From positions 1 through 53,939 of the IMG/VR virus record IMGVR_UViG_3300030419_006158: a DNA stretch of 53,939 bases; one strand, written 5' to 3'. Below, piece by piece: positions 4,108 to 28,355 of the stretch. This DNA is from a virus. Lineage: Duplodnaviria > Caudoviricetes. The first letter of the stretch is position 1. Every line of letters starts with the position of its first letter. The translations under genes and the position numbers were made by a program. The notes beneath the pieces were generated by a model. That model saw nothing but the letters and a program-made list of their open reading frames with translations, ran no database searches and had not been told where the DNA came from.

Positions 4108-5171
4108 AATCGTTTAAATATTTTTTTGAAGATAATGAGGACTCTGAGCACTATTTAAGAGTTGATGATAAACCATTTAAGAAATCTATACCTATAAGTG
4201 ATGATGATTATAAAGAGATAAAACATTTATTAGCCGACCGTGGTAGTATAGATGAGCTAATTACAAAGATAGGCGAACAGTCTAATTTAAAACCAGACCG
4301 AGTAAAAGATCTTCTCAAAATTCTCTTATCTCAATCTAACACTGATACTGTTATAGAATACTTACACAATAGAGAAGATATTGGAGTAACTAAAGATGAG
4401 TTAGTATCATCAGGTAATATATTTACCGCTTTTGGTGAGGTAGGATTCGAAGAAGATACGATTAAGGATTTATATAATAAACAATTCTCCGAACAGCCAG
4501 TTATGGGTAGAGGAGAAATGTTAATGGCTGTTCTTTTAAAAGGATGTACGAAACCACCTAAAGGAGATATTCTTATAGATGGTGAATTATATGATGTAAA
4601 AGGAAAGAGTGCTCGTCTGAGAGGACAGACTGGATATGGTGATGGTGCATCGGCTAGTATTTATTGGTCTACTGAGTTCACAAAATTGAGCAATGAAAAT
4701 GATTTAAACTTAGATGTACCGGAAGGTGGTACTAATGACTTTAATATTTTAATAAACAGCCCCGGTTACGCAATAAGGACTGGTTTTGAATTATTAAACA
4801 ATAATATTATTACTGCAGAATATTTTGGTACTTTGATTAAAAATGGTCTTAAGTCTGTATTTTCTCGAATGGAAGATTTTGAATTAACATTTGTTGATGA
4901 TCTAATTAATGAAGGATTTGAGGCAGGTTATAAGAGGTTTATTACTAATTATAAGATAGCATTACTTCATTACTATTTAAGACTTGAAAGGATGGAAAAT
5001 ACTGGGCTACTTATTTTTAATGAACCACAAGGTAATGTAGCACATATCAATAGTTCTACTTCTCCTGACGAGGTTTTTAGACAAGTCGGTATTGGTTTAC
5101 CAGGTTTTGGAGCTAAAGCTGGTCCACAGGGTAGTGCTGCATCGATCACAACAAAAACAAAAATTAAATAA
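4104..5171 (+). CDS. Putative PD-(D/E)xK nuclease-fold protein
   Basis: GRGE...KGDILIDGELYDVKG (E...D...D/ExK). Confidence 0.5.
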   Translation: MKSFKYFFEDNEDSEHYLRVDDKPFKKSIPISDDDYKEIKHLLADRGSIDELITKIGEQSNLKPDRVKDLLKILLSQSNTDTVIEYLHNREDIGVTKDELVSSGNIFTAFGEVGFEEDTIKDLYNKQFSEQPVMGRGEMLMAVLLKGCTKPPKGDILIDGELYDVKGKSARLRGQTGYGDGASASIYWSTEFTKLSNENDLNLDVPEGGTNDFNILINSPGYAIRTGFELLNNNIITAEYFGTLIKNGLKSVFSRMEDFELTFVDDLINEGFEAGYKRFITNYKIALLHYYLRLERMENTGLLIFNEPQGNVAHINSSTSPDEVFRQVGIGLPGFGAKAGPQGSAASITTKTKIK

Positions 5172-5392
5172 TGGCAGTATTAGGATTATATGATACAACG
5201 GTAATGGGATATAGAGTGAAAGTTCAGCCTTATGTTATCGGTATTTTTGATGATGATGATATGATCGTAGGGGAAAGAATTCCTAATAAGATTGTACGGT
5301 ATCTAATTGAAGAAGGTTTTTGTGATACTTGGTTAAAGGACGATATTGGAATTAGAGTAAATATTTACAGACAAGGCAATGCTGACTTATAA
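5171..5392 (+). CDS. Hypothetical protein
   Basis: 73 aa ORF translationally coupled to both neighbours; YLIEEGF motif. Confidence 0.6.
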   Translation: MAVLGLYDTTVMGYRVKVQPYVIGIFDDDDMIVGERIPNKIVRYLIEEGFCDTWLKDDIGIRVNIYRQGNADL

Positions 5393-11422: not shown

Positions 11423-11614
11423 ATGGAGCCATTATCTAGAGAGTTTCTCCTCAGCCAAAAAAAATGTTGTGGATCAGGTTGTAAAAATTGTCCATACTTA
11501 CCGCGACATAAACGAAATGCCGATGTGGTGGAATTGGTAGACACGGCAGACTTAAAATCTGCTTCCTGTAGTGGGAGTAACGGTTCGAGTCCGTTCATCG
11601 GTACCATTAAATAA
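11423..11614 (+). CDS. Cys-rich DUF5522-like protein reading through tRNA-Leu
   Basis: FLL...CCGSGCKNCPY motif; TAATG coupling at 11421-11425. Confidence 0.65.
   Translation: MEPLSREFLLSQKKCCGSGCKNCPYLPRHKRNADVVELVDTADLKSASCSGSNGSSPFIGTIK
11519..11606 (+). tRNA. tRNA-Leu(UAA)
   Basis: GCCGATG/CATCGGT acceptor stem, GCAGA-cttaaaa-TCTGC anticodon arm, long variable arm, GGTTCGAGTCC, encoded CCA. Confidence 0.95.
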
Positions 11615-19177: not shown

Positions 19178-19254
19178 GCCAGCTTAGCTCAGTTCGGCAG
19201 AGCAACGGTTTTGTAAACCGTCGGTCCTCGGTTCGAATCCGAGAGCTGGCTCCA
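19178..19254 (+). tRNA. tRNA-Thr(UGU)
   Basis: GCCAGCT/AGCTGGC acceptor stem, ACGGT-ttTGTaa-ACCGT, GGTTCGAATCC, CCA. Confidence 0.95.
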
Positions 19255-19801: not shown

Positions 19802-20725
19802 ATGAAGTTAAACATTAACAAAACTAAGTTCGAGAAGGTAGCGGATATTAAAGTTCCGGATATCTTCTATCGCCGCCTTAAGACTGGTATTGATGTTGTC
19901 GATTCAGCATTTGGCCAAGGTTTTCTCCCTTCTAGCACTGTTGTTCTCAGCGGTGAACCCGGTACTGGTAAGACTACATTCCTCCTTCAAATACTTGAAA
20001 GTCTCTCCACTCGGAAATATAAAGTTGGGTATGTTTCTGGAGAAGAGTGCATGGAGTTGCTTAAGGTAAATTGCGATAGAATTGGTGTTAAGAATATTAT
20101 GGCGTGTAGTGAGACTAATATTGAGACTATTCTTAAGCAAGTACCTGAATTTGATGCAATTGTAATTGATAGTTTTCAATCATTGAGTAGTAGTAGGAAA
20201 TCTATGGCACATGAAAAGTATTGTGTCGAGCAGATTTGTGCTGCAGCTAAAGCGCATCAGACAACTATTTTTATTATTACACATATTACTAAGACTGGTA
20301 AGATGAAAGGTAGCACACTCTTACCTCACTCTGTAGATGTTGTTTGTAATTTAAAACGACATGAAGACTTTGATGAGCTTGAAGATAAGACTGTAACGCT
20401 TAACATTACAAAAAATAGGTTTGGTCCGACTTTAATTAAAGAGCTTAATTTTACAGCTCGGGGTTATGACTGGACTACGGCGAAGAGTGTTTCAGTAGAA
20501 GCTACAGTTGCTCCAAAGAGTCAGCGAATAAAGCAAGAGACAAGTACGATTAAAGATATTGCGAAAAAGCTTCGTGATGGTAAATTTAGTATCGATGAAG
20601 TTAGTAAGGAGATAAAAAATAAGCCTAGAGCATATTATGTCTTGAATAAACTGACAAAGGATGGTATACTTGAAAAGGTCGCCAAGCGTGGTACTACTAA
20701 AACACATTATCAATTTAAGTCATAA
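19802..20725 (+). CDS. RadA/Sms-like RecA-family ATPase with putative C-terminal wHTH
   Basis: GEPGTGKTT, YVSGEE, IDSFQ, HITK.G, KNRFG signature. Confidence 0.85.
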   Translation: MKLNINKTKFEKVADIKVPDIFYRRLKTGIDVVDSAFGQGFLPSSTVVLSGEPGTGKTTFLLQILESLSTRKYKVGYVSGEECMELLKVNCDRIGVKNIMACSETNIETILKQVPEFDAIVIDSFQSLSSSRKSMAHEKYCVEQICAAAKAHQTTIFIITHITKTGKMKGSTLLPHSVDVVCNLKRHEDFDELEDKTVTLNITKNRFGPTLIKELNFTARGYDWTTAKSVSVEATVAPKSQRIKQETSTIKDIAKKLRDGKFSIDEVSKEIKNKPRAYYVLNKLTKDGILEKVAKRGTTKTHYQFKS

Positions 20726-20871
20726 TGAGAGTCATAGGTAACGTTATTTTTACTTTAATTTATATTTTTATATTTTTACCTGTAGGGTTAATACTTAGAG
20801 TCTTTAAAATTGATTTACTAGATATAAATTTTAATAAGACGGTTTCCAGTTACTGGCAAAAAAAAGATTAA
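20725..20871 (+). CDS. SxtJ-like membrane peptide (48 aa, not in ORF track)
   Basis: IFTLIYIFIFLPVGLILRVFKIDLL...SYW resembles the SxtJ C-terminal half; adjacent to carbamoyltransferase. Confidence 0.55.
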   Translation: MRVIGNVIFTLIYIFIFLPVGLILRVFKIDLLDINFNKTVSSYWQKKD

Positions 20872-20874
20872 TGA

Positions 20875-22665
20875 ATGATTGTATTAGGTATTTCAGCATT
20901 TTATCACGATAGCGCTGCTGCCATTTTAATAGATGGGGATATTGTAGCTGCTGCACAAGAAGAAAGGTTCACTAGAAAGAAACATGATGCTACCTTTCCT
21001 ATTAAAGCGATAAGTTATATTTTATCTGAAGCTAATATTACATTAAAAGATATAGATTATATAGTATTTTATGATGATCCTTCTTTAAAATTTAAAAGAA
21101 TTCTTAAAACACATTTAACAAATATTCCTAAAGGTCTCAGATCTTTTCGAACGGGTATGCCAATATGGGTTAAAGATAAATTCTTTTTAAGGAAAGTAAT
21201 TTCAAAAAAATTAAAAAAGGCGTTTGGTGGAGGTTTTAAAGGTTGTATTTTATTTACTGAACATCATTTTAGTCACGCCGCGAGTGCATTTTATCCTTCC
21301 CCTTTTAAGGATGCTGTTGTTTTAACTATTGATGGTGTAGGTGAATATGCTACAACAACTGTAGCTATTGGGAACGGAAATAAACTTAACATTGTTAAAG
21401 AAATTTGTTTTCCTAATTCATTAGGTTTATTATATTCTGCTTTTACTCATTATACAGGCTTTCGAGTTAATAGTGGTGAGTATAAATTGATGGGGCTAGC
21501 ACCATATGGAACACCTAGGTATACAGATTTAATTTTAGACAATTTAATAGACGTAAAAGAAGATGGATCGTTTCGTTTAGATCAGTCTTATTTTGATTAT
21601 ATGACTGGTCGTACTATGATCAGTAAAAAGTTTTTAACTCTTTTCGGTTACCCAGCAAGGAAACCAGACTCAGATCCTTTAAGTCAATTCCATATGGATA
21701 TCGCTGCGTCTATTCAAGCTGTAACTGAAAAGGTTTTATTGCAGATGACTCGTGCTCTTGCAGATGAATATAAAATTCCAAATTTATGTCTTGCAGGAGG
21801 AGTTGCTCTTAATTGTGTTGCTAATGGAAAAATTCTTAGAGATAAAGCTTTTGAAAATATTTGGATACAACCTGCCGCTGGAGATGCGGGAGGTGCTCTT
21901 GGAGCGGCATTAGGTGTTTGGCATAATAAATTTGCATGTAGTCCTAGAACCCTTGACAGTAATATGATGAAAGGTTCTTACCTTGGTCCTAGCTTTAGCG
22001 ATATTGAAATCGAACAACAGTTATCCGAAGCAGGTGTTATTTTTCAAAAGGTTTCAGATTCTATCCTTATTGAAAAGACTGTAAAGCAATTAATTGATAA
22101 TAAAGCTATAGGGTGGTTCCAAGGACGAATGGAGTTTGGTCCTAGGGCTTTAGGAAACAGATCAATTTTAGGTGATCCTCGATCTGAAGATATGCAAAAG
22201 CTTTTAAATTTAAAAGTAAAATTTCGAGAAAGTTTTCGTCCTTTTGCTCCTTCAGTTTTACGAGAAGATGTAGGTGACTGGTTCGAAATGGATTATGACA
22301 GTCCCTATATGTCAATCGTCACTAACGTACAAAAGAATATTCAACATGAAATGACTCAAGAGGAAAAGGCATTATTTGGAATTGAAAAACTAAATGTTAA
22401 AAGATCAAACATCCCAGCAGTGACACATGTTGATTATTCTGCTCGAGTACAAACTGTCCATTCTGAAACCAATCCATTATATCATGCTTTGATTAGTGAG
22501 TTTAAAAGGATAACAGGTTGCTCATTATTAGTTAATACCTCATTTAATATTCGAGGAGAGCCAATTGTATGTACACCGTTAGACGCATTTAAATGTTTTA
22601 TGGGTACAAATATTGATTTTTTAGTTATTGGTAATTTTATCATAGATAAAAAGCATCAAAAATAG
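20875..22665 (+). CDS. O-carbamoyltransferase (NodU/CmcH family)
   Basis: ISAFYHDSAA, QEERF.R.KH, EHH.SHAAS, DGVGE, GEYKLMGLAPYG, GGVALNC, EFGPRALGNRS, NTSFN. Confidence 0.95.
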   Translation: MIVLGISAFYHDSAAAILIDGDIVAAAQEERFTRKKHDATFPIKAISYILSEANITLKDIDYIVFYDDPSLKFKRILKTHLTNIPKGLRSFRTGMPIWVKDKFFLRKVISKKLKKAFGGGFKGCILFTEHHFSHAASAFYPSPFKDAVVLTIDGVGEYATTTVAIGNGNKLNIVKEICFPNSLGLLYSAFTHYTGFRVNSGEYKLMGLAPYGTPRYTDLILDNLIDVKEDGSFRLDQSYFDYMTGRTMISKKFLTLFGYPARKPDSDPLSQFHMDIAASIQAVTEKVLLQMTRALADEYKIPNLCLAGGVALNCVANGKILRDKAFENIWIQPAAGDAGGALGAALGVWHNKFACSPRTLDSNMMKGSYLGPSFSDIEIEQQLSEAGVIFQKVSDSILIEKTVKQLIDNKAIGWFQGRMEFGPRALGNRSILGDPRSEDMQKLLNLKVKFRESFRPFAPSVLREDVGDWFEMDYDSPYMSIVTNVQKNIQHEMTQEEKALFGIEKLNVKRSNIPAVTHVDYSARVQTVHSETNPLYHALISEFKRITGCSLLVNTSFNIRGEPIVCTPLDAFKCFMGTNIDFLVIGNFIIDKKHQK

Positions 22666-22666
22666 C

Positions 22667-22694
22667 TTGTTAATTTTCGGGAAATAGTTATAAT
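22667..22694 (+). promoter_or_regulatory. Sigma70-type early promoter
   Basis: TTGTTA-N16-TATAAT, 8 nt before ATG. Confidence 0.6.
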
Positions 22695-22702
22695 ATATTC
22701 TT

Positions 22703-23218
22703 ATGTACGACAGTGGTAGAGTATACAGAGGTTATCGTATTGAATATGATGAAGATATTCAGGAGGACTGTATAAAAAATATGTATTTTATTTATCCGCC
22801 TGATGAACCAGAAAAGTCTCATTTCGCTGATGTAAGCCCTTATGGAGCAATACAATTGATACTTGACAAGTATATTGATTTTCATATTAGTGAAGGATTT
22901 TTTCCAGATCGTAAAAGTCTTAGAAAGTTAGGTATAGATCAAATTGGTCCAACTACTGAAAAAGATATTAAACAAGCTAAACTAAAATTAGCCCTCTCTC
23001 AAGACTACAATACTAATGTTGAACAAGCAGATTTAGCTATAGACGAAGTAAATAAATTCGGTCTTATATGTATTCGTTGTGGTGGTAGAGGTGGTACTAT
23101 TGTTGAAGCTGAAGGTGGTTATTTGCCATGTTTTGCATGCGGTGACTCTGGTACTCAAACATACGAGGACTGGTTGCGAGATTTGCAAGACTTGCCATGC
23201 TCTATAGAGACTGTATAA
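22703..23218 (+). CDS. Hypothetical protein with C-terminal CxxCxGxG zinc ribbon
   Basis: CIRCGGRG...CFACGDSG. Confidence 0.6.
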   Translation: MYDSGRVYRGYRIEYDEDIQEDCIKNMYFIYPPDEPEKSHFADVSPYGAIQLILDKYIDFHISEGFFPDRKSLRKLGIDQIGPTTEKDIKQAKLKLALSQDYNTNVEQADLAIDEVNKFGLICIRCGGRGGTIVEAEGGYLPCFACGDSGTQTYEDWLRDLQDLPCSIETV

Positions 23219-23219
23219 T
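23192..23219 (+). promoter_or_regulatory. Sigma70-type early promoter
   Basis: TTGCCA-N16-TATAAT, 7 nt before ATG 23227. Confidence 0.7.
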
Positions 23220-23226
23220 AGGTTTT

Positions 23227-23469
23227 ATGAAGAATTATATTATTGCGTGGTTAGTTACTATTTTATTAACAATTGGTGGTTTGTTTGGAGTAGGGTTTAC
23301 AGTGGGTATAGTAATGGCTGCAGCTGGAAACGCGCAGGGAGCACAAAATGTTGAACAGTATGCATGGTTTAATGTATTAGTAATAATTAGTATGATTGTT
23401 CTAAATTTTCTTTCATTTAAGTTTGCGACTAAGAAATTTATAGTGGATAGAACAGCAAATGAAAAATAG
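23227..23469 (+). CDS. Two-TM membrane protein
   Basis: Two hydrophobic helices. Confidence 0.65.
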   Translation: MKNYIIAWLVTILLTIGGLFGVGFTVGIVMAAAGNAQGAQNVEQYAWFNVLVIISMIVLNFLSFKFATKKFIVDRTANEK

Positions 23470-23497
23470 TTGCACTACTGTCCAGAGTTGTTATAAT
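23470..23497 (+). promoter_or_regulatory. Sigma70-type promoter driving a non-coding region
   Basis: TTGCAC-N16-TATAAT followed by boxA-like GAGTTATTTGACAT. Confidence 0.65.
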
Positions 23498-23503
23498 AGT
23501 TTG

Positions 23504-23819
23504 AGTTATTTGACATGTTTAAAGTCGGCGAGTACAACGCCTCCATCGCCCTAGAGAGGGACAGAAGTGGTAAGACACTTTACGCTTTATTGCAGGTGGC
23601 GCTGCGACGACTTAAGAATTTGAATTTGAGATGGTTGACGGACCGTCTCTGGTGTGACAGAATAAACATTCGCCTCGAGTGTTAATGTACGCGGAGAGTA
23701 ATTGACGACCAAGTGGTAGAGAGAGCTCGAAGTGGTTCGAAGTACGGTGATCAGAATAACATTTGATCGAGGACCGGAAAAGTTGCAGGTAACCAAATAG
23801 TCCTGCCACCCTTTTTTTT
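23504..23819 (+). ncRNA. Candidate structured ncRNA (~300 nt)
   Basis: GC-richer than its flanks, no plausible + strand ORF, many hairpins with G-U pairs, 3' hairpin plus T8 run. Confidence 0.65.
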
Positions 23820-23823
23820 ACTT

Positions 23824-24636
23824 ATGATTATAATACGAACAGATACAATAAGAAGAGTGTTACTATATTTCATTTTAGCTGGCACGATGTCTTACTTTGC
23901 TGGTTACATGCACGGAGAACCTATGACCCCGTCACCGACAATACAAAAGTTCAACGGGCTCTTCATGCCAATATCAGAGCAAAATTCTAATTTATATTTT
24001 TTACTTTTACCTGGCCAAGCGGTTGTGGAAGAAGATCAAAGAATAAAACTTGATGATGAAGAGTTTACTCAAGCTATAAAAGAAACTGAAAATCATAGAA
24101 TATTTCATGTAAGGTCGAGAGGAGGTATGTTAACTCATACTTGTTTAGACGCACTACGTGGTCAAAATGAATTGCGATATTTAGATCTGTCTAACAATAG
24201 ATTGATTTCTGATCTTGCTTGTAAAAAAATCGCTGAATATTTTCCAAGATTGGAGAGATTGAATCTATTTAATACTAGTATCTCAAATAAAGGCTTGATT
24301 TATCTTATGGATTTAACTAAACTTAAGCAGTTGCACCTAGCACTGACAAAGGTCACATGGGATGAAGCGAATTTATTTAGAGGTAAGATGCAAGCAATAG
24401 CAGGTAATGAAGATTTAGAGATTACAGCAGGTTATAATAAACCTTCTTTACTAAGTTACAATTTAATTAAAAGGTTAAGAGCAACATATCAAACTAATAC
24501 TTATAATGGTAGAGTTGATCCAGATTTTAAAATAGAGATTTTAGGAGGGGAAGTTAAGGAAAATAAAAAATATGATGAGACTGATAGAGCTGAAGATGAT
24601 GCTAAAAAGTCTGTATCAGGTCCAATTTTAGAATAA
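23824..24636 (+). CDS. Exported leucine-rich-repeat protein
   Basis: LRYLDLSNN, LERLNLFNTSISNKGL, LKQLHLALTKVT; N-terminal hydrophobic segment. Confidence 0.75.
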   Translation: MIIIRTDTIRRVLLYFILAGTMSYFAGYMHGEPMTPSPTIQKFNGLFMPISEQNSNLYFLLLPGQAVVEEDQRIKLDDEEFTQAIKETENHRIFHVRSRGGMLTHTCLDALRGQNELRYLDLSNNRLISDLACKKIAEYFPRLERLNLFNTSISNKGLIYLMDLTKLKQLHLALTKVTWDEANLFRGKMQAIAGNEDLEITAGYNKPSLLSYNLIKRLRATYQTNTYNGRVDPDFKIEILGGEVKENKKYDETDRAEDDAKKSVSGPILE

Positions 24637-25373
24637 TGAAAAAAATACTATTGTCATTAATTATTGCAGGTTCTGCTTATGCAGAAGATATTCCCCCTCA
24701 TGCAGAAATGAGAAAGCCAACTAAGGTTGTAGAGCATGCTGGTTTGACTAGAGAAGAGATTTGGATGTCTCGTTCTGGTGAAGACTATTATATTGTTAAC
24801 GATATTATCAGTAAACAGACTATTTTTATTCCAATGGGAAAAGCTATGGAATATTTTATGAAGTCTTTGAACTATTATAATAGGTCATTAGGTACGACGA
24901 CAAAAAAAGCTATTGATCGAGCTAAAAAAGAAAACAAACGTGTATATGTTAACATTGTAGCTGGTAGTGATATACCCGCTCATGCATTTGCTGGGCGTAA
25001 TAATGTTTATAAAGTAGATGAATTTCCTAATGGTCAATATACAATTTTTTATGTTAGCCCTGATGGGTCTATATCTCAGGATCATTATGAATCTGGTGAA
25101 TATGGTCAAATAGGTCGTGATGGTGTTTCCTTTGAACACGCCGTTAAAACATTTGGATCGACTGAGATTAGAAAAGCTAGAGAAAGAGCTGAGAAGTCAA
25201 ATAAAGATTATGACTGGGAAGTTACATTAAAACTCCCTGACACAAAACCTACTATAATTATTTTTGATACGTTTGACAAATACGAAGAATGGTTTAACAG
25301 AACTCGGTATTCGGATCAGCATGCTAAAATGAAAAAAATATCAGCAAGTGTAGATGTTGTACAAAATAAGTGA
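24636..25373 (+). CDS. Secreted hypothetical protein
   Basis: Signal peptide MKKILLSLIIAGSAYA. Confidence 0.65.
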   Translation: MKKILLSLIIAGSAYAEDIPPHAEMRKPTKVVEHAGLTREEIWMSRSGEDYYIVNDIISKQTIFIPMGKAMEYFMKSLNYYNRSLGTTTKKAIDRAKKENKRVYVNIVAGSDIPAHAFAGRNNVYKVDEFPNGQYTIFYVSPDGSISQDHYESGEYGQIGRDGVSFEHAVKTFGSTEIRKARERAEKSNKDYDWEVTLKLPDTKPTIIIFDTFDKYEEWFNRTRYSDQHAKMKKISASVDVVQNK

Positions 25374-25529
25374 TAACTATTGGTGATATGGAAATTATTT
25401 TTTTGCTACCTACTCTATTCGTATTACTTCTAGTCGCTGTATATAACCGAAATCGTAAACAGGCTGAACGAGACGTTGAGTGGAAAAATAATAAAGATAA
25501 GTACAAATATAAAGATTGGAGATACTAAA

Positions 25530-26162
25530 ATGGGAATGTTTGATGAAATAATTGTACCGAAATCTTATTTAAGAGATATCTTAGATAAGAAGGATGAGAG
25601 TTTATTCGACACTAATCATAAATTCCAAACTAAAGATTTAGAAAATGCTTTATTTACTTATAAGATTTATAGAAAGCAATTATACAGAGCTATAACCAAG
25701 GGTATGTTTGCAGATACTACTGCAAATAAAAAGCTTGTATGGGAAAAAGTTCTAGAGACTAAAACGATATCGTTTTATGATACATTTCAAAAACGTAGTA
25801 GTGATAGTACCGGTAATAACGATTGGGATAATTTTGAGGGTGATGAATATTGGTTTGAGTTTGAGTTTAGTTTTGTTGAAGGTAAACTTGATACGAAAAA
25901 GCTGATAGACAAGACTGTAACAGATGAAGAGACTCGAAAAGCTACTCAACTTATGTGGGATATTGAACAAGAGATTTTTGATGAGTATCGAAAGAGACTA
26001 TCGTATAGATTTTGGACAAAAGTAGAGCGTGTATGTCAAAGACTTACAAACATGGCTCGTAAGAGACATTCAATACCTAATAGTCTTCGTAAGGAAGCTT
26101 ATGAAGCATCTGGTCGTTTAGTAAAAGACCCTGACGCGCTTAAATTTTATTGGGATATTTAA
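25530..26162 (+). CDS. Hypothetical phage protein (MGMFD family)
   Basis: MGMFD...FQTKDL...W.EF...F..GKL. Confidence 0.65.
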   Translation: MGMFDEIIVPKSYLRDILDKKDESLFDTNHKFQTKDLENALFTYKIYRKQLYRAITKGMFADTTANKKLVWEKVLETKTISFYDTFQKRSSDSTGNNDWDNFEGDEYWFEFEFSFVEGKLDTKKLIDKTVTDEETRKATQLMWDIEQEIFDEYRKRLSYRFWTKVERVCQRLTNMARKRHSIPNSLRKEAYEASGRLVKDPDALKFYWDI

Positions 26163-26163
26163 T

Positions 26164-26385
26164 ATGGCACATTTTATAAAATTACACACACTTGAAGGAG
26201 CAGAAATGCTGTTTAATCTCGACGTTGTAGTTAGTATCGACCCGTTACCAGACGGTACTATGGTACAAACTCGTTGGGGAGGTACTAAGGTACGAGAAGA
26301 TATAGATAAAATACTGAGTTTATCTAATCCTACAACAAACGCGACTGGACATCAATTGTTAACTGAGAATGAAACGCCTTATTAG
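26164..26385 (+). CDS. Small beta protein, FlbD-like
   Basis: FIKL...N.D.V..I.....T......VRE....I; similar to 48707-48961. Confidence 0.5.
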   Translation: MAHFIKLHTLEGAEMLFNLDVVVSIDPLPDGTMVQTRWGGTKVREDIDKILSLSNPTTNATGHQLLTENETPY

Positions 26386-26822
26386 TGCCTGAACAAATAC
26401 AATTAGACAGGACGTATTTAGCGATGGCTGCTATATGGGGTCAGTTGTCTAAAGCTAGGCGTAAAAAGGTAGGTTGTCTTATAGTAAAAGACAGTCAAAT
26501 TATTTCTGATGGTTACAACGGTACTCCTGCAGGGTACGATAATAATTGCGAGTATGAGACTAGATTTGGCTATGAAACTAAGCCAGAAGTACTGCATGCG
26601 GAATCCAATGCGTTGATGAAATTGGCTAAAAGTGTAAATAGCAGTAAAGGTTCGACAATTTATTTAACTATAAGCCCTTGTTTTGATTGTGCGAAATTAA
26701 TTATACAAGCAGAAGTTAAGAGGGTAGTTTATAGTGAAATTTATCGAATAGAAAAGGGTATAGAATTTTTGCGCAGCAATGGTGTTGTAGCAGATTTTGT
26801 TACGATTAATGAATCTACATAA
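26385..26822 (+). CDS. dCMP deaminase
   Basis: GYNGTP.G, HAESNA, SPCFDCAK. Confidence 0.93.
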   Translation: MPEQIQLDRTYLAMAAIWGQLSKARRKKVGCLIVKDSQIISDGYNGTPAGYDNNCEYETRFGYETKPEVLHAESNALMKLAKSVNSSKGSTIYLTISPCFDCAKLIIQAEVKRVVYSEIYRIEKGIEFLRSNGVVADFVTINEST

Positions 26823-27165
26823 ACAAGGTAAAATATGGGGATCTACACGACCTCTTTTTAATAAAAATAATGTTGAGATTCATAGAATTGAAACTAATAA
26901 AGGCGGTTATTGTAGCAAGCATAAACATGAACACAAATATAATTGCTTTTATGTAGAAAAAGGTCTACTAAAAATCACTGTATGGAAAAATGATTATAAT
27001 TTAATGGATACAACTATACTTTCCTCTGGAGAAGCCACTACAGTTCCTCCTGGTGAGTATCATGTATTCGAAGCATTGGAAGATTCTATATGTTTTGAAA
27101 TATACTGGGTTGAAATAAATCAATCAGATATCGTAAGAGAAGATCATGGAGGAATTCGCGAATGA
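26809..27165 (+). CDS. Cupin domain protein
   Basis: GKIWG, CSKHKH..K.N.FYV..G, PGEYH.F. Confidence 0.8.
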   Translation: MNLHKQGKIWGSTRPLFNKNNVEIHRIETNKGGYCSKHKHEHKYNCFYVEKGLLKITVWKNDYNLMDTTILSSGEATTVPPGEYHVFEALEDSICFEIYWVEINQSDIVREDHGGIRE

Positions 27166-28355
27166 GTAATTATAATCAGGCTCAATATCAACAAATTATA
27201 TCTTATATACACAAATTCTCACAGCTATTAACTAAGGCCGATGTAAAGCATTGGCTTGATTTTGGAACATTGTTACATGCCTATAGAGACGGTGGCGTGT
27301 TAAATAACCCTAACCGAGCAGCTGCTGGTAAAGATGTAAACGATACGTATTTAAATGATGATGATTTTGATATTAGTTGTATAGGTACTGATTATGATAA
27401 AGTTATAGAGGTCTGCAAAGAAAATAATATAGAGTATATAGAAATTGCTCCAAGGCAGCTAATACGTTTTACTAGAGAAGGTCTTGCAAGTATTCATAAA
27501 AATGAATGGCCAAATAGACTGTCTGGTGATTATGATAGTTGGATTGATATGTTCTTTTGGGTTGAATCTCCTAATTATGATATTTTAGTAGAAGATCAGA
27601 TTGACATGGCTTCTGGATCTAGGATAGAAAATGCTATATTAACTCTCCCCAAAAGTTCTTTATTCAACTGGACTGTTGATAAACAAAGTCATTGTGACTA
27701 CTATTGGATCACGAAAAAATATTTTATTCAAGAATTAGATTCAATCCACCTATACGGGTTTAAGTTCCCTGCACCTAGGTATGTAGAGAGACATTTAGAA
27801 GCAAGATATGGTACTAAATGGAAGACACCTATGACAAAAGGATTATTTGTAGAACATTTTTATTCTACAGATCCTGCAAAATATTTTAACTTGTTAATGG
27901 AAGATAAAATTTCAGTATTTATTGAAGGTGTCTGGGATTTATTCCATCAAGGCCATGTGGAGTTATTAAAACGAGCGCATTACGCTTATGATAAGGTTAT
28001 TGTAGGTGTTGCGTCTGATGAATTAGCAAAAAGTTATAAACGGTCACCTATTATACCATACGGTGACAGGGTTAAAATGTTAGAAGCGTGTAAATATGTT
28101 GACCAGATTTATCATAATGCTCCATGCATGGATATTACAGAAAGTGTTTTAGATAATTGCGGTGCAGATTATAGTTTACGTAGTGTTCGAGATGCTAATA
28201 ACTGGAGGGAAGAAGTAAGTGACCTTGGTCACGGTGCGTTAGTTGATACGAATAGAGTTCATTTTCTATCTTATACAAAGTATCATTCGACTGACATAAT
28301 TAATAAAATTCTTGATCCCTATTACGGGGATCCTTTAAATTCTACTCAATCATGA
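27162..28355 (+). CDS. LicD-like phosphotransferase fused to TagD-like cytidylyltransferase
   Basis: N-terminal WLDFGTLL.AYRDG...DDDFD...L..RYG..W.TP; C-terminal GVWDLFH.GH, GVASDE, R...L.AC.YVD, HST..I. Confidence 0.8.
   Translation: MSNYNQAQYQQIISYIHKFSQLLTKADVKHWLDFGTLLHAYRDGGVLNNPNRAAAGKDVNDTYLNDDDFDISCIGTDYDKVIEVCKENNIEYIEIAPRQLIRFTREGLASIHKNEWPNRLSGDYDSWIDMFFWVESPNYDILVEDQIDMASGSRIENAILTLPKSSLFNWTVDKQSHCDYYWITKKYFIQELDSIHLYGFKFPAPRYVERHLEARYGTKWKTPMTKGLFVEHFYSTDPAKYFNLLMEDKISVFIEGVWDLFHQGHVELLKRAHYAYDKVIVGVASDELAKSYKRSPIIPYGDRVKMLEACKYVDQIYHNAPCMDITESVLDNCGADYSLRSVRDANNWREEVSDLGHGALVDTNRVHFLSYTKYHSTDIINKILDPYYGDPLNSTQS

Follow-up and report, generated by a model that had tools for sequence, protein, structure and literature searches.

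The window analyzed in this study is a stretch of 53,939 nucleotides (nt) of DNA from a tailed phage (IMG/VR record IMGVR_UViG_3300030419_006158, positions 1–53,939, estimated to be 27% complete). Its segment 23470–23819, located between open reading frames (ORFs) at 23197–23469 and 23824–24636, is non-coding. The segment carries on the plus strand a predicted promoter followed by ~290 nt of structured RNA in two modules, a five-way junction designated X and a module that resembles the manA RNA family (Rfam RF01745). A 56-amino-acid (aa) ORF that overlaps the element (23515–23685) has its start inside a lineage-specific insertion, and the insertions and deletions among relatives of the element are not multiples of three. 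The G+C content is 0.455–0.465 over 23500–23799, compared with 0.34–0.385 in the adjoining intervals and mostly 0.24–0.40 over 20000–28000. A preliminary description of the window had noted this GC-richer non-coding stretch and attributed it to a single large novel RNA with its own promoter. All sequence features named in that description are present, and homologues bear out a structured non-coding RNA on the plus strand with a conserved promoter directly upstream; however, the RNA divides into two modules that can be found in either order or, in the case of X, without the other. The features of the element are as follows.

23470–23497, plus strand: predicted promoter, TTGCAC (23470–23475), 16-nt spacer, TATAAT (23492–23497); identical in locus L002
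23498–23521, plus strand: leader segment with GAGTTATTTGACAT at 23503–23516; lineage-specific insertion
23522–23613, plus strand: module X, five-way junction; from alignment A3, pair counts and covariance model R1
23522–23527 with 23608–23613, plus strand: X helix P1
23528–23530 with 23538–23540, plus strand: X hairpin H1
23549–23552 with 23557–23560, plus strand: X hairpin H2; variable-length inserts in relatives
23564–23569 with 23576–23581, plus strand: X hairpin H3, loop GUAAGA
23590–23595 with 23602–23607, plus strand: X hairpin H4, loop GUGGCG
23614–23627, plus strand: A/U-rich linker between the modules
23628–23810, plus strand: manA-like module; from the RF01745 match, RNAalifold on alignment A4 and pair counts
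23628–23636 with 23641–23649, plus strand: manA-like P1, loop GACG
23651–23654 (GGUG) with 23807–23810 (CACC), plus strand: manA-like closing stem
23657–23659 with 23686–23688 and 23665–23671 with 23677–23683, plus strand: manA-like P2, flanked by GAAUAA and UAA
23708–23710 with 23715–23717, plus strand: manA-like small hairpin
23745–23753 with 23764–23768 and 23773–23776, plus strand: manA-like long hairpin
23785–23789 with 23802–23806, plus strand: manA-like 3′ hairpin
23812–23819, plus strand: T8 run directly after the closing stem; possibly a terminator of weak or conditional activity, or else a translation leader rich in A/U

Structures of module X and the manA-like module

The five-helix model of X was evaluated on alignment A3, which contains 24 distinct full-length sequences. 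Base pairs occupy 97.6% of the alignment cells, and nine of the 24 pairs have changed on both sides, whereas the slid controls contain zero or one such pair. The first comparison of X from the window with that of the near-identical genome G001 displayed compensatory changes and one hairpin of differing length. Hairpins H1 and H2 keep their base pairs despite insertions of 20 to ~100 nt. The helices listed in the preliminary description are kept with compensatory changes, except for a long-range one discussed below; those in X are AAGTCG (23522–23527) with CGACTT (23608–23613), GGCG with CGCC, CCCT with AGGG, and AAGTG with CACTT. The G-U pairs that the same description had pointed out are frequent in the conserved helices, as exemplified by pair 146–163 of H3, which is G-U in 23 of the 24 sequences, and pair 173–188 of H4, which is U-G in 13. 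The R1 covariance model scores 113.6 bits on X of the window.

A search of 23485–23640 against Rfam with E values of up to 10 returned only a chance 20-nt fragment of snoU49 (E = 7.8), and the copies of X in L129–L131 have zero Rfam matches at E values of up to 0.1. The models of the wcaG motif, glutamine riboswitch, and transfer-messenger RNA (tmRNA) have no match at the position of X at E values of up to 10. No earlier account of X or this manA variant was found in the literature, in which a nameless motif is not searchable by words. Judged from its alignments, X is an undescribed fold that is well supported by covariation. Contacts between its loops were sought by eye, and none was retained. 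A pseudoknot of CCUCC, located after H1, with the H4 loop contains a U-U mismatch and does not covary in L130 or L163. Kissing loops of GUGGUU with AACCA, and of GGCG from H4 with CGCC from the P2 loop of the manA-like module, do not covary across sequence types in A3 and A4.

A search pattern made of the conserved H3 loop and the junction after H3 was scanned against three collections. It retrieved five true loci and one chance locus (L128) from IMG/VR, and 36 true and 12 chance loci (48 in total) from metagenomes. Both matches in 185,579 species genomes, one in Photorhabdus and the other in a metagenome-assembled genome of Acholeplasmatales, are due to chance. The chance loci contain no X according to R1, and R1 did not find X in phages HTVC008M or Melnitz-3. 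The linker that connects X to the manA-like module is 5–14 nt long in most relatives; it is extended to ~75 nt and includes an extra hairpin in L147 and L179.

The 3′ module was aligned by a relaxed cmscan search (23629–23816) to RF01745 over model positions 1–192, with a score of 45.0 bits and an E value of 2.7e-10. The scan of the whole window at the Rfam gathering thresholds returned two tRNAs only. The comparison with Rfam thus reduces the novelty of the 3′ module, to which the match is below threshold, and leaves X without a match. Copies of the manA-like module in G001, L129, and L130 score 47.3, 51.9, and 39.1 bits, and a search for manA in 14 control genomes gave zero matches.

The structure of the manA-like module is supported by alignment A4 of 20 distinct relatives. 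Base pairs are formed in 96.1% of the cells, and 17 of the 39 pairs have changed on both sides, compared with three to six in the slid controls. RNAalifold applied to A4 recovers the same helices as the cmscan alignment. Helix P1, formed by GAGATGGT (23628–23635) and ACCGTCTC (23642–23649), has all eight pairs standard in the 20 sequences, and six of the eight have changed on both sides. The region of P2 (23655–23690), in which AACATTCG from 23665 pairs with CGAGTGTT from 23676, has conserved letters that align to the manA model, and five of its ten pairs have changed on both sides. The long hairpin (23745–23776) includes the pairing of GATCA (23749–23753) with TGATC (23764–23768), and 85% of the cells are paired in each of its two helices. 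The 3′ hairpin (23785–23806), closed by GCAGG (23785–23789) and CCTGC (23802–23806), is 100% paired, and its sequence aligns to the manA model. The closing stem GGUG/CACC is paired in all 20 sequences, with one compensatory change from U-A to A-U. Four of the retained helices, P1, the closing stem, P2 with its GAAUAA/UAA internal loops, and the 3′ hairpin GGUA...UCC, form what appears to be the core of the manA family.

The preliminary description had proposed long-range pairing of GGTGGC (23595–23600) with GCCACC (23805–23810). Both segments are present, but the bases CACC at 23807–23810 pair with GGUG at 23651–23654, and GGUGGC constitutes the H4 loop of X, which is conserved even in loci lacking the manA-like module. 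Covariation among homologues therefore supports both modules and leaves the long-range helix unsupported.

The central region of the manA-like module is less regular. RNAalifold recovers only one three-base-pair hairpin there, and the alignment of this region is unreliable. No consistent covariation between loops was detected in A4 by eye. The segment 23745–23748 can be paired by eye with either 23694–23697 or 23773–23776; the alignment of the central part is unreliable, and no claim is drawn from it. The three segments seem to change together across the window, L132-type, and L129-type sequences, which could reflect an alternative pairing.

The RNA motif manA has been found in marine metagenomes, T4-like cyanophages, and two gamma-proteobacteria, mostly in 5′ untranslated regions (UTRs), and its closing stem was marked “pseudoknot?” (Weinberg et al. 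2010, PMC2864571). The module described here shares with RF01745 the full-length alignment to the model, the P1 with a GACG loop, the closing stem, the bipartite long hairpin, the P2 with GUGAC-GAAUAA and UAA-G internal loops, and the 3′ hairpin GGUA...A.UA.UCC. Both occur in marine T4-like phages, sometimes adjoining tRNAs. By contrast, the subfamily represented in the window scores 39–52 bits, and canonical copies 100–197 bits. The canonical six-base-pair helix with GUGGUG, GNRA, and ACCA hairpins is represented here only by a recognizable small GUGG-containing hairpin, and the closing stem is GGUG/CACC instead of GGGAG/CUCCC. Furthermore, the module described here is followed by a T-run and has X as a companion, whereas R1 identified X in none of the 119 IMG/VR loci retrieved by a generic manA pattern. 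On these grounds, the 3′ module ranks among divergent manA relatives rather than canonical members. A scan of IMG/VR with a pattern specific for the manA-like module gave nine matches, six of which are true and three of which are due to chance (L199–L201). Each of the six true matches is adjoined by X or, in L198, by an X-like element in reduced form (30.7 bits). A mis-specified pattern, with one N too many, gave five matches, all of them chance and without an R1 match. The manA motif has been an orphan since 2010, and the locus adds to it a divergent subfamily that is missed by the Rfam threshold, together with an undescribed companion fold linked to this subfamily in either order. These offer structural biologists a natural fusion and a series of variants with which to probe the conserved core of manA and the contribution of its peripheral domains.

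Promoter, module order, and 3′ end

The pattern TTGCAC...TGTCTAGAG...TATAAT is conserved both in the loci in which X precedes the manA-like module and in those containing X only, and its conservation suggests that 23470–23497 functions as a promoter. In the relatives outside the lineage of the window and G001, TATAAT is positioned 5–7 nt before P1 of X, and in most relatives the expected start of transcription is the first base of P1. The promoter motif is not enriched elsewhere in the window (three matches at up to three mismatches, compared with 1.77 expected). The insertion forming the leader segment is limited to the window, L002, L132, L133, and L152. The sequence GAGTTATTTGACAT, which the preliminary description had likened to the boxA antitermination element of stable-RNA operons, is confined to the lineage of the window and G001 and is therefore not a conserved element.

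The X-bearing loci, sorted by the A4 profile, number 44 and comprise the window, five loci from IMG/VR, 36 from metagenomes, and two from the scan with the manA-like pattern; many of them are near-identical, so they do not represent 44 independent lineages. X is followed by the manA-like module in 26 loci, two of which have an extra segment of ~75 nt between the modules. The manA-like module is positioned directly upstream of X in ten loci. X is alone and immediately followed by an ORF in six loci, two of which include little upstream sequence, and the remaining two loci are too short to classify. The two modules are thus separable, and their order is permutable.

The settings of the element vary. 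In 13 of the 42 classifiable loci, by our tally, the element occupies a place other than upstream of an ORF. The unit of L197, in which X comes first, is located between two canonical intrinsic terminators. In L129, a perfect promoter and a 99-aa ORF precede the manA-like module and, after it, X; downstream of X are a GC hairpin with a T-run and then a new promoter matching 11 of 12 consensus positions. In L130 and L169, which also belong to the 26 loci with X first, a gene for tRNA-Cys is positioned at most 3 nt past the manA-like module; according to cmscan the two overlap by 2 nt, and according to aragorn the tRNA is 3 nt downstream. Canonical manA has a tRNA within 150 nt in five of 18 sampled loci.

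The T8 run at 23812–23819, which had been noted in the preliminary description, is located 5 nt from the last hairpin. Relatives have T5–T9 runs after the manA-like module, unless a tRNA comes next. In L197 (11776–11830) and at the equivalent place in L198, ~60 nt of conserved sequence separate the T-run of the manA-like module from a strong canonical terminator. This terminator consists of CACCCCGC-GAAA-GCGGGGUG followed by a U-run, and the ~60 nt before it may be a further small RNA element.

Possible functions of the RNA

We favor the interpretation that the element encodes a stable, independently acting, and possibly self-assembling RNA, the promoter of which also feeds variable downstream genes, and we assign it a probability of about 0.5. 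A sigma-70-type promoter at 23470–23497 would give rise to a transcript of ~320 nt containing two independently folding modules. The RNA would act in trans as a stable folded particle, rather than as a sensor tied to one downstream gene. The T-run after the closing stem would be a leaky stop, and variable moron genes, in the window the leucine-rich-repeat (LRR) ORF, would ride on the promoter of the RNA. A stable particle is suggested because the order of the modules is shuffled, because some units are bracketed by terminators or adjoin tRNAs, and because canonical manA self-assembles in vitro. Cryo-electron microscopy of canonical manA is reported to have revealed pentamer-based octamers, decamers, and a 60-subunit cage formed in vitro, and manA variants share a common core and differ in their peripheral helices (July 2026 preprint, 10.64898/2026.07.01.735769). 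The variant described here may oligomerize in a similar manner.

Contigs from RNA libraries offer a weak hint of a discrete transcript. Six DNA runs contain at least half of the words sampled from the stretch, and some of it is present in four RNA-library runs. The four RNA libraries, from four studies, have one contig each, 160–293 nt long, that is confined to the element and does not extend into the flanking genes. One of the runs has a second contig, which matches only a 33-nt piece further upstream. The contigs from three libraries end at 23797–23810, just before the T-run; as contigs, they are uninformative about strand, ends, and abundance, and gaps in their coverage carry no weight. The RNA would be a candidate abundant early RNA for marine metatranscriptomes.

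Several observations weigh against the reading as an independent RNA. In 28 of the 42 classifiable loci, again by our tally, the RNA is physically a 5′ leader, because an ORF starts ~5–20 nt past the element, too close to have its own promoter. In these loci, the T-run is consequently not a complete stop. A scan for consensus promoters missed 23470–23497, in which the −35 hexamer matches three of six positions, and a scan for terminators identified no canonical terminator in the region, the T8 run included. The RNA-library contigs are partly at odds with the predicted start of transcription: four are within the element, but two of them include promoter sequence. Contig X19 contains 42 nt upstream of the predicted start, including TTGCAC...TATAAT, and contig X20 contains 14 nt, including TATAAT; the upstream sequence may be due to DNA carry-over or read-through. 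The minimum free energy of the region is no better than chance (z = −1.49; nine of 100 shuffles are equally low or lower), and because the thermodynamic stability alone is unremarkable, the evidence for a real structure comes from the homologues. The covariation counts overstate the number of independent events because many of the aligned sequences are closely related; R1 has an effective sequence number of 1.05. The link to manA is also distant. The score of 45.0 bits in the window is lower than the RF01745 gathering score of 55.2 bits, whereas 18 of 20 loci sampled from the 119 of the generic manA pattern exceed the threshold and score 100–197 bits. The canonical central domain, a six-base-pair helix enclosing three hairpins, is unmatched, since cmscan deletes the 3′ strand of the helix and skips the interior. 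Finally, the manA oligomers were formed in vitro by canonical constructs, with 10 mM Mg and RNA at high concentration, and are reported in a preprint that has not been peer-reviewed (10.64898/2026.07.01.735769).

The serious alternative, although less probable, is a cis-regulatory leader. According to this explanation, the element would work within a long 5′ UTR as an attenuator or tandem riboswitch, its two modules would be aptamers for ligands or factors, and the folding of the closing stem GGUG/CACC against the T8 run would decide between termination and read-through. The manA motif was rated as certainly cis-regulatory and probably a riboswitch, located in the 5′ UTRs of genes of mannose or fructose metabolism and nucleotide synthesis (PMC2864571). 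Nucleotide-sugar genes, a cupin with a weak match to mannose-6-phosphate isomerase, a cytidylyltransferase, and a dCMP deaminase are encoded near the element in the window. The promoterless ORFs past the element agree with a leader, as does the T-run found after the closing stem of almost every copy located in front of an ORF. The alternative pairing of 23745–23748 would suit a switch, but it was seen by eye and is not robust. However, the gene immediately downstream of the element varies: the window has the LRR ORF there, L002 and other loci have a gene for a secreted 245-aa protein, and L137 and L180 have a different small ORF. Ten loci have the pair of modules behind an ORF, with a terminator-like hairpin and then a new promoter downstream. 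The two loci with a tRNA directly after the unit and the terminator-bracketed unit of L197 provide further context against a dedicated 5′-UTR sensor. The T-run, at its distance of 5 nt from the last hairpin, does not form a canonical terminator. Moreover, a permutable order of modules is unusual for an aptamer combined with an expression platform, and manA has no known ligand.

X may represent a new class of phage structured RNA that acts physically together with manA-type particles, as a cargo, cap, or docking domain on or in a self-assembled cage. We regard this extension as speculative and unlikely. If it were true, the fused transcripts of X and the manA-like module, in either order, would constitute a natural two-component RNA nano-assembly produced during infection by marine T4-like phages. 

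It is improbable that the folds serve mainly in RNA processing or stability. They would protect ends or admit an RNase and thereby set the half-lives of nearby mRNAs or tRNA precursors, with neither a ligand nor action in trans. The occurrence of the element at 5′ ends (26 and six loci), at 3′ ends (ten loci), and beside tRNAs is in agreement with such a role, and the position of P1 of X at the predicted +1 in most relatives would give a paired 5′ end. However, the loops and junctions GUAAGA, UACGCUUUAUU, GUGGCG, GACG, and GAAUAA are invariant or nearly invariant across lineages, which simple stabilizers do not require, and a five-way junction combined with a multi-helix domain of ~180 nt far exceeds known stabilizers. 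The original proposal of a single large RNA, with boxA-type antitermination and a long-range helix between 23595 and 23805, is very improbable, because although the promoter, GAGTTATTTGACAT, and the complementary GGTGGC and GCCACC are all present, the boxA-like segment is missing in all relatives beyond the lineage of the window and G001, the 3′ half resembles manA, the modules occur apart and in either order, CACC pairs with 23651–23654 in all 20 sequences, and the GUGGCG loop is kept without the manA-like module.

The preliminary description had also compared the 3′ hairpin with RNAs of the GOLLD and ROOL type. The Rfam models of these families have no match at the gathering threshold or at E values of up to 10. 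GOLLD and ROOL are phage-associated, are often located beside tRNA genes, and are about 600–800 nt long; each of the modules described here is much smaller, ~90–185 nt. The resemblance is functional at most, through the oligomers of canonical manA: GOLLD, ROOL, and OLE form RNA-only oligomers (Kretsch et al. 2025, PMC12286853), a property that within the manA family is reported for canonical manA only.

The wcaG motif, the glutamine riboswitch, and phage tmRNA occupy the same niche, T4-like marine phages, as the RNA described here. The small stable RNAs “species 1 and 2” of phage T4 are co-transcribed with tRNAs in the tRNA cluster; they provide an analogy only. Phage S-CREM1 encodes wcaG, manA (100.6 bits), and glnA RNAs (PMC9964418), and the Melnitz phages encode a glutamine riboswitch together with tmRNA (PMC9004378). 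In the IMG/VR contig L050 (1705–2735), a canonical manA (100.2 bits) is located inside a dense tRNA array, with tRNAs 6–7 nt away on its 5′ side and 4–5 nt away on its 3′ side, and it adjoins a match to cyano_tmRNA or permuted tmRNA (116.6 bits). Matches to the glutamine riboswitch (35–39 bits) are located ~225–380 nt from canonical manA in the cyanophage-like contigs L010, L037, and L054, which suggests islands of RNA genes.

The phage and the neighboring genes

The carrier of the locus is a marine T4-like myovirus with a genome of roughly 200 kb. The near-identical relative G001 is complete, 200,819 base pairs long with terminal repeats, and contains exactly one copy of each module. A conserved 416-aa protein encoded in the window has its best match among cultured phages in Pelagibacter phage HTVC008M (37% identity), with similarly strong matches in T4-like cyanophages and the Methylophilales phage Melnitz, all of which are classified as Kyanoviridae. 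The subfamily appears to reside not in classical cyanophages but in marine T4-like phages: among cultured phages, the closest match of one protein from the window is in the SAR11 phage HTVC008M, where a weak manA-like element is also present. This element, at 5037–5223 of HTVC008M (L193, KC465899.1), scores 25.9 bits with an E value of 6.8e-6 for one genome. It has a recognizable closing stem, P2, and 3′ hairpin, and is positioned upstream of the gene for a single-stranded-DNA-binding protein. It overlaps an annotated coding sequence for a 56-aa hypothetical protein (4993–5163), which is possibly spurious. A blastn search with 23400–23900 of the window against 50,697 phage records gave zero matches.

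The ORFs neighboring the RNA element are listed below.

22703–23218, plus strand: 171-aa ORF with a Cys-rich CxxCxGxG C-terminus; conserved upstream neighbor of the RNA gene
23197–23469, plus strand: 90-aa ORF, predicted membrane protein; lineage-specific insertion upstream of the promoter, missing in G001 and L002
23824–24636, plus strand: 270-aa leucine-rich-repeat ORF; variable downstream gene with weak LRR matches in Pfam, all below the cut-off

The 171-aa ORF has zero matches in Pfam or PHROG and is 99% identical in L002 and L003. The part encoding its C-terminus precedes the promoter in most loci with X followed by the manA-like module or with X only. Its C-terminal Cys-rich motif reads CxxCxGxG ... 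CxxCGDSG, which we take to be of the DnaJ zinc-finger type. In G001 and L002, which lack the 90-aa ORF, the promoter comes immediately after the 171-aa ORF. The LRR ORF starts 5 nt past the T-run, a space too small for its own promoter, and has zero relatives in IMG/VR. It is missing in G001 and L002, where a homologue of the window ORF 24636–25373 comes after the RNA. The window and its 99%-identical twin genome G001 thus differ in the genes flanking the element and keep the promoter and RNA. The RNA gene is an apparent hot spot for the insertion of morons, since the 90-aa and LRR ORFs are present in the window and neither is present in G001. A 61%-identical homologue of the 245-aa gene in L127 has a dUTPase gene upstream and no RNA element there.

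In addition to the metabolic genes named above, among which the nucleotide-sugar genes encode epimerases, the genes near the element encode glycosyltransferases and a carbamoyltransferase. The two tRNA genes of the window (11519–11603 and 19178–19251), one of which has a long variable arm, are located in the region of glycosylation genes, away from the RNA locus.

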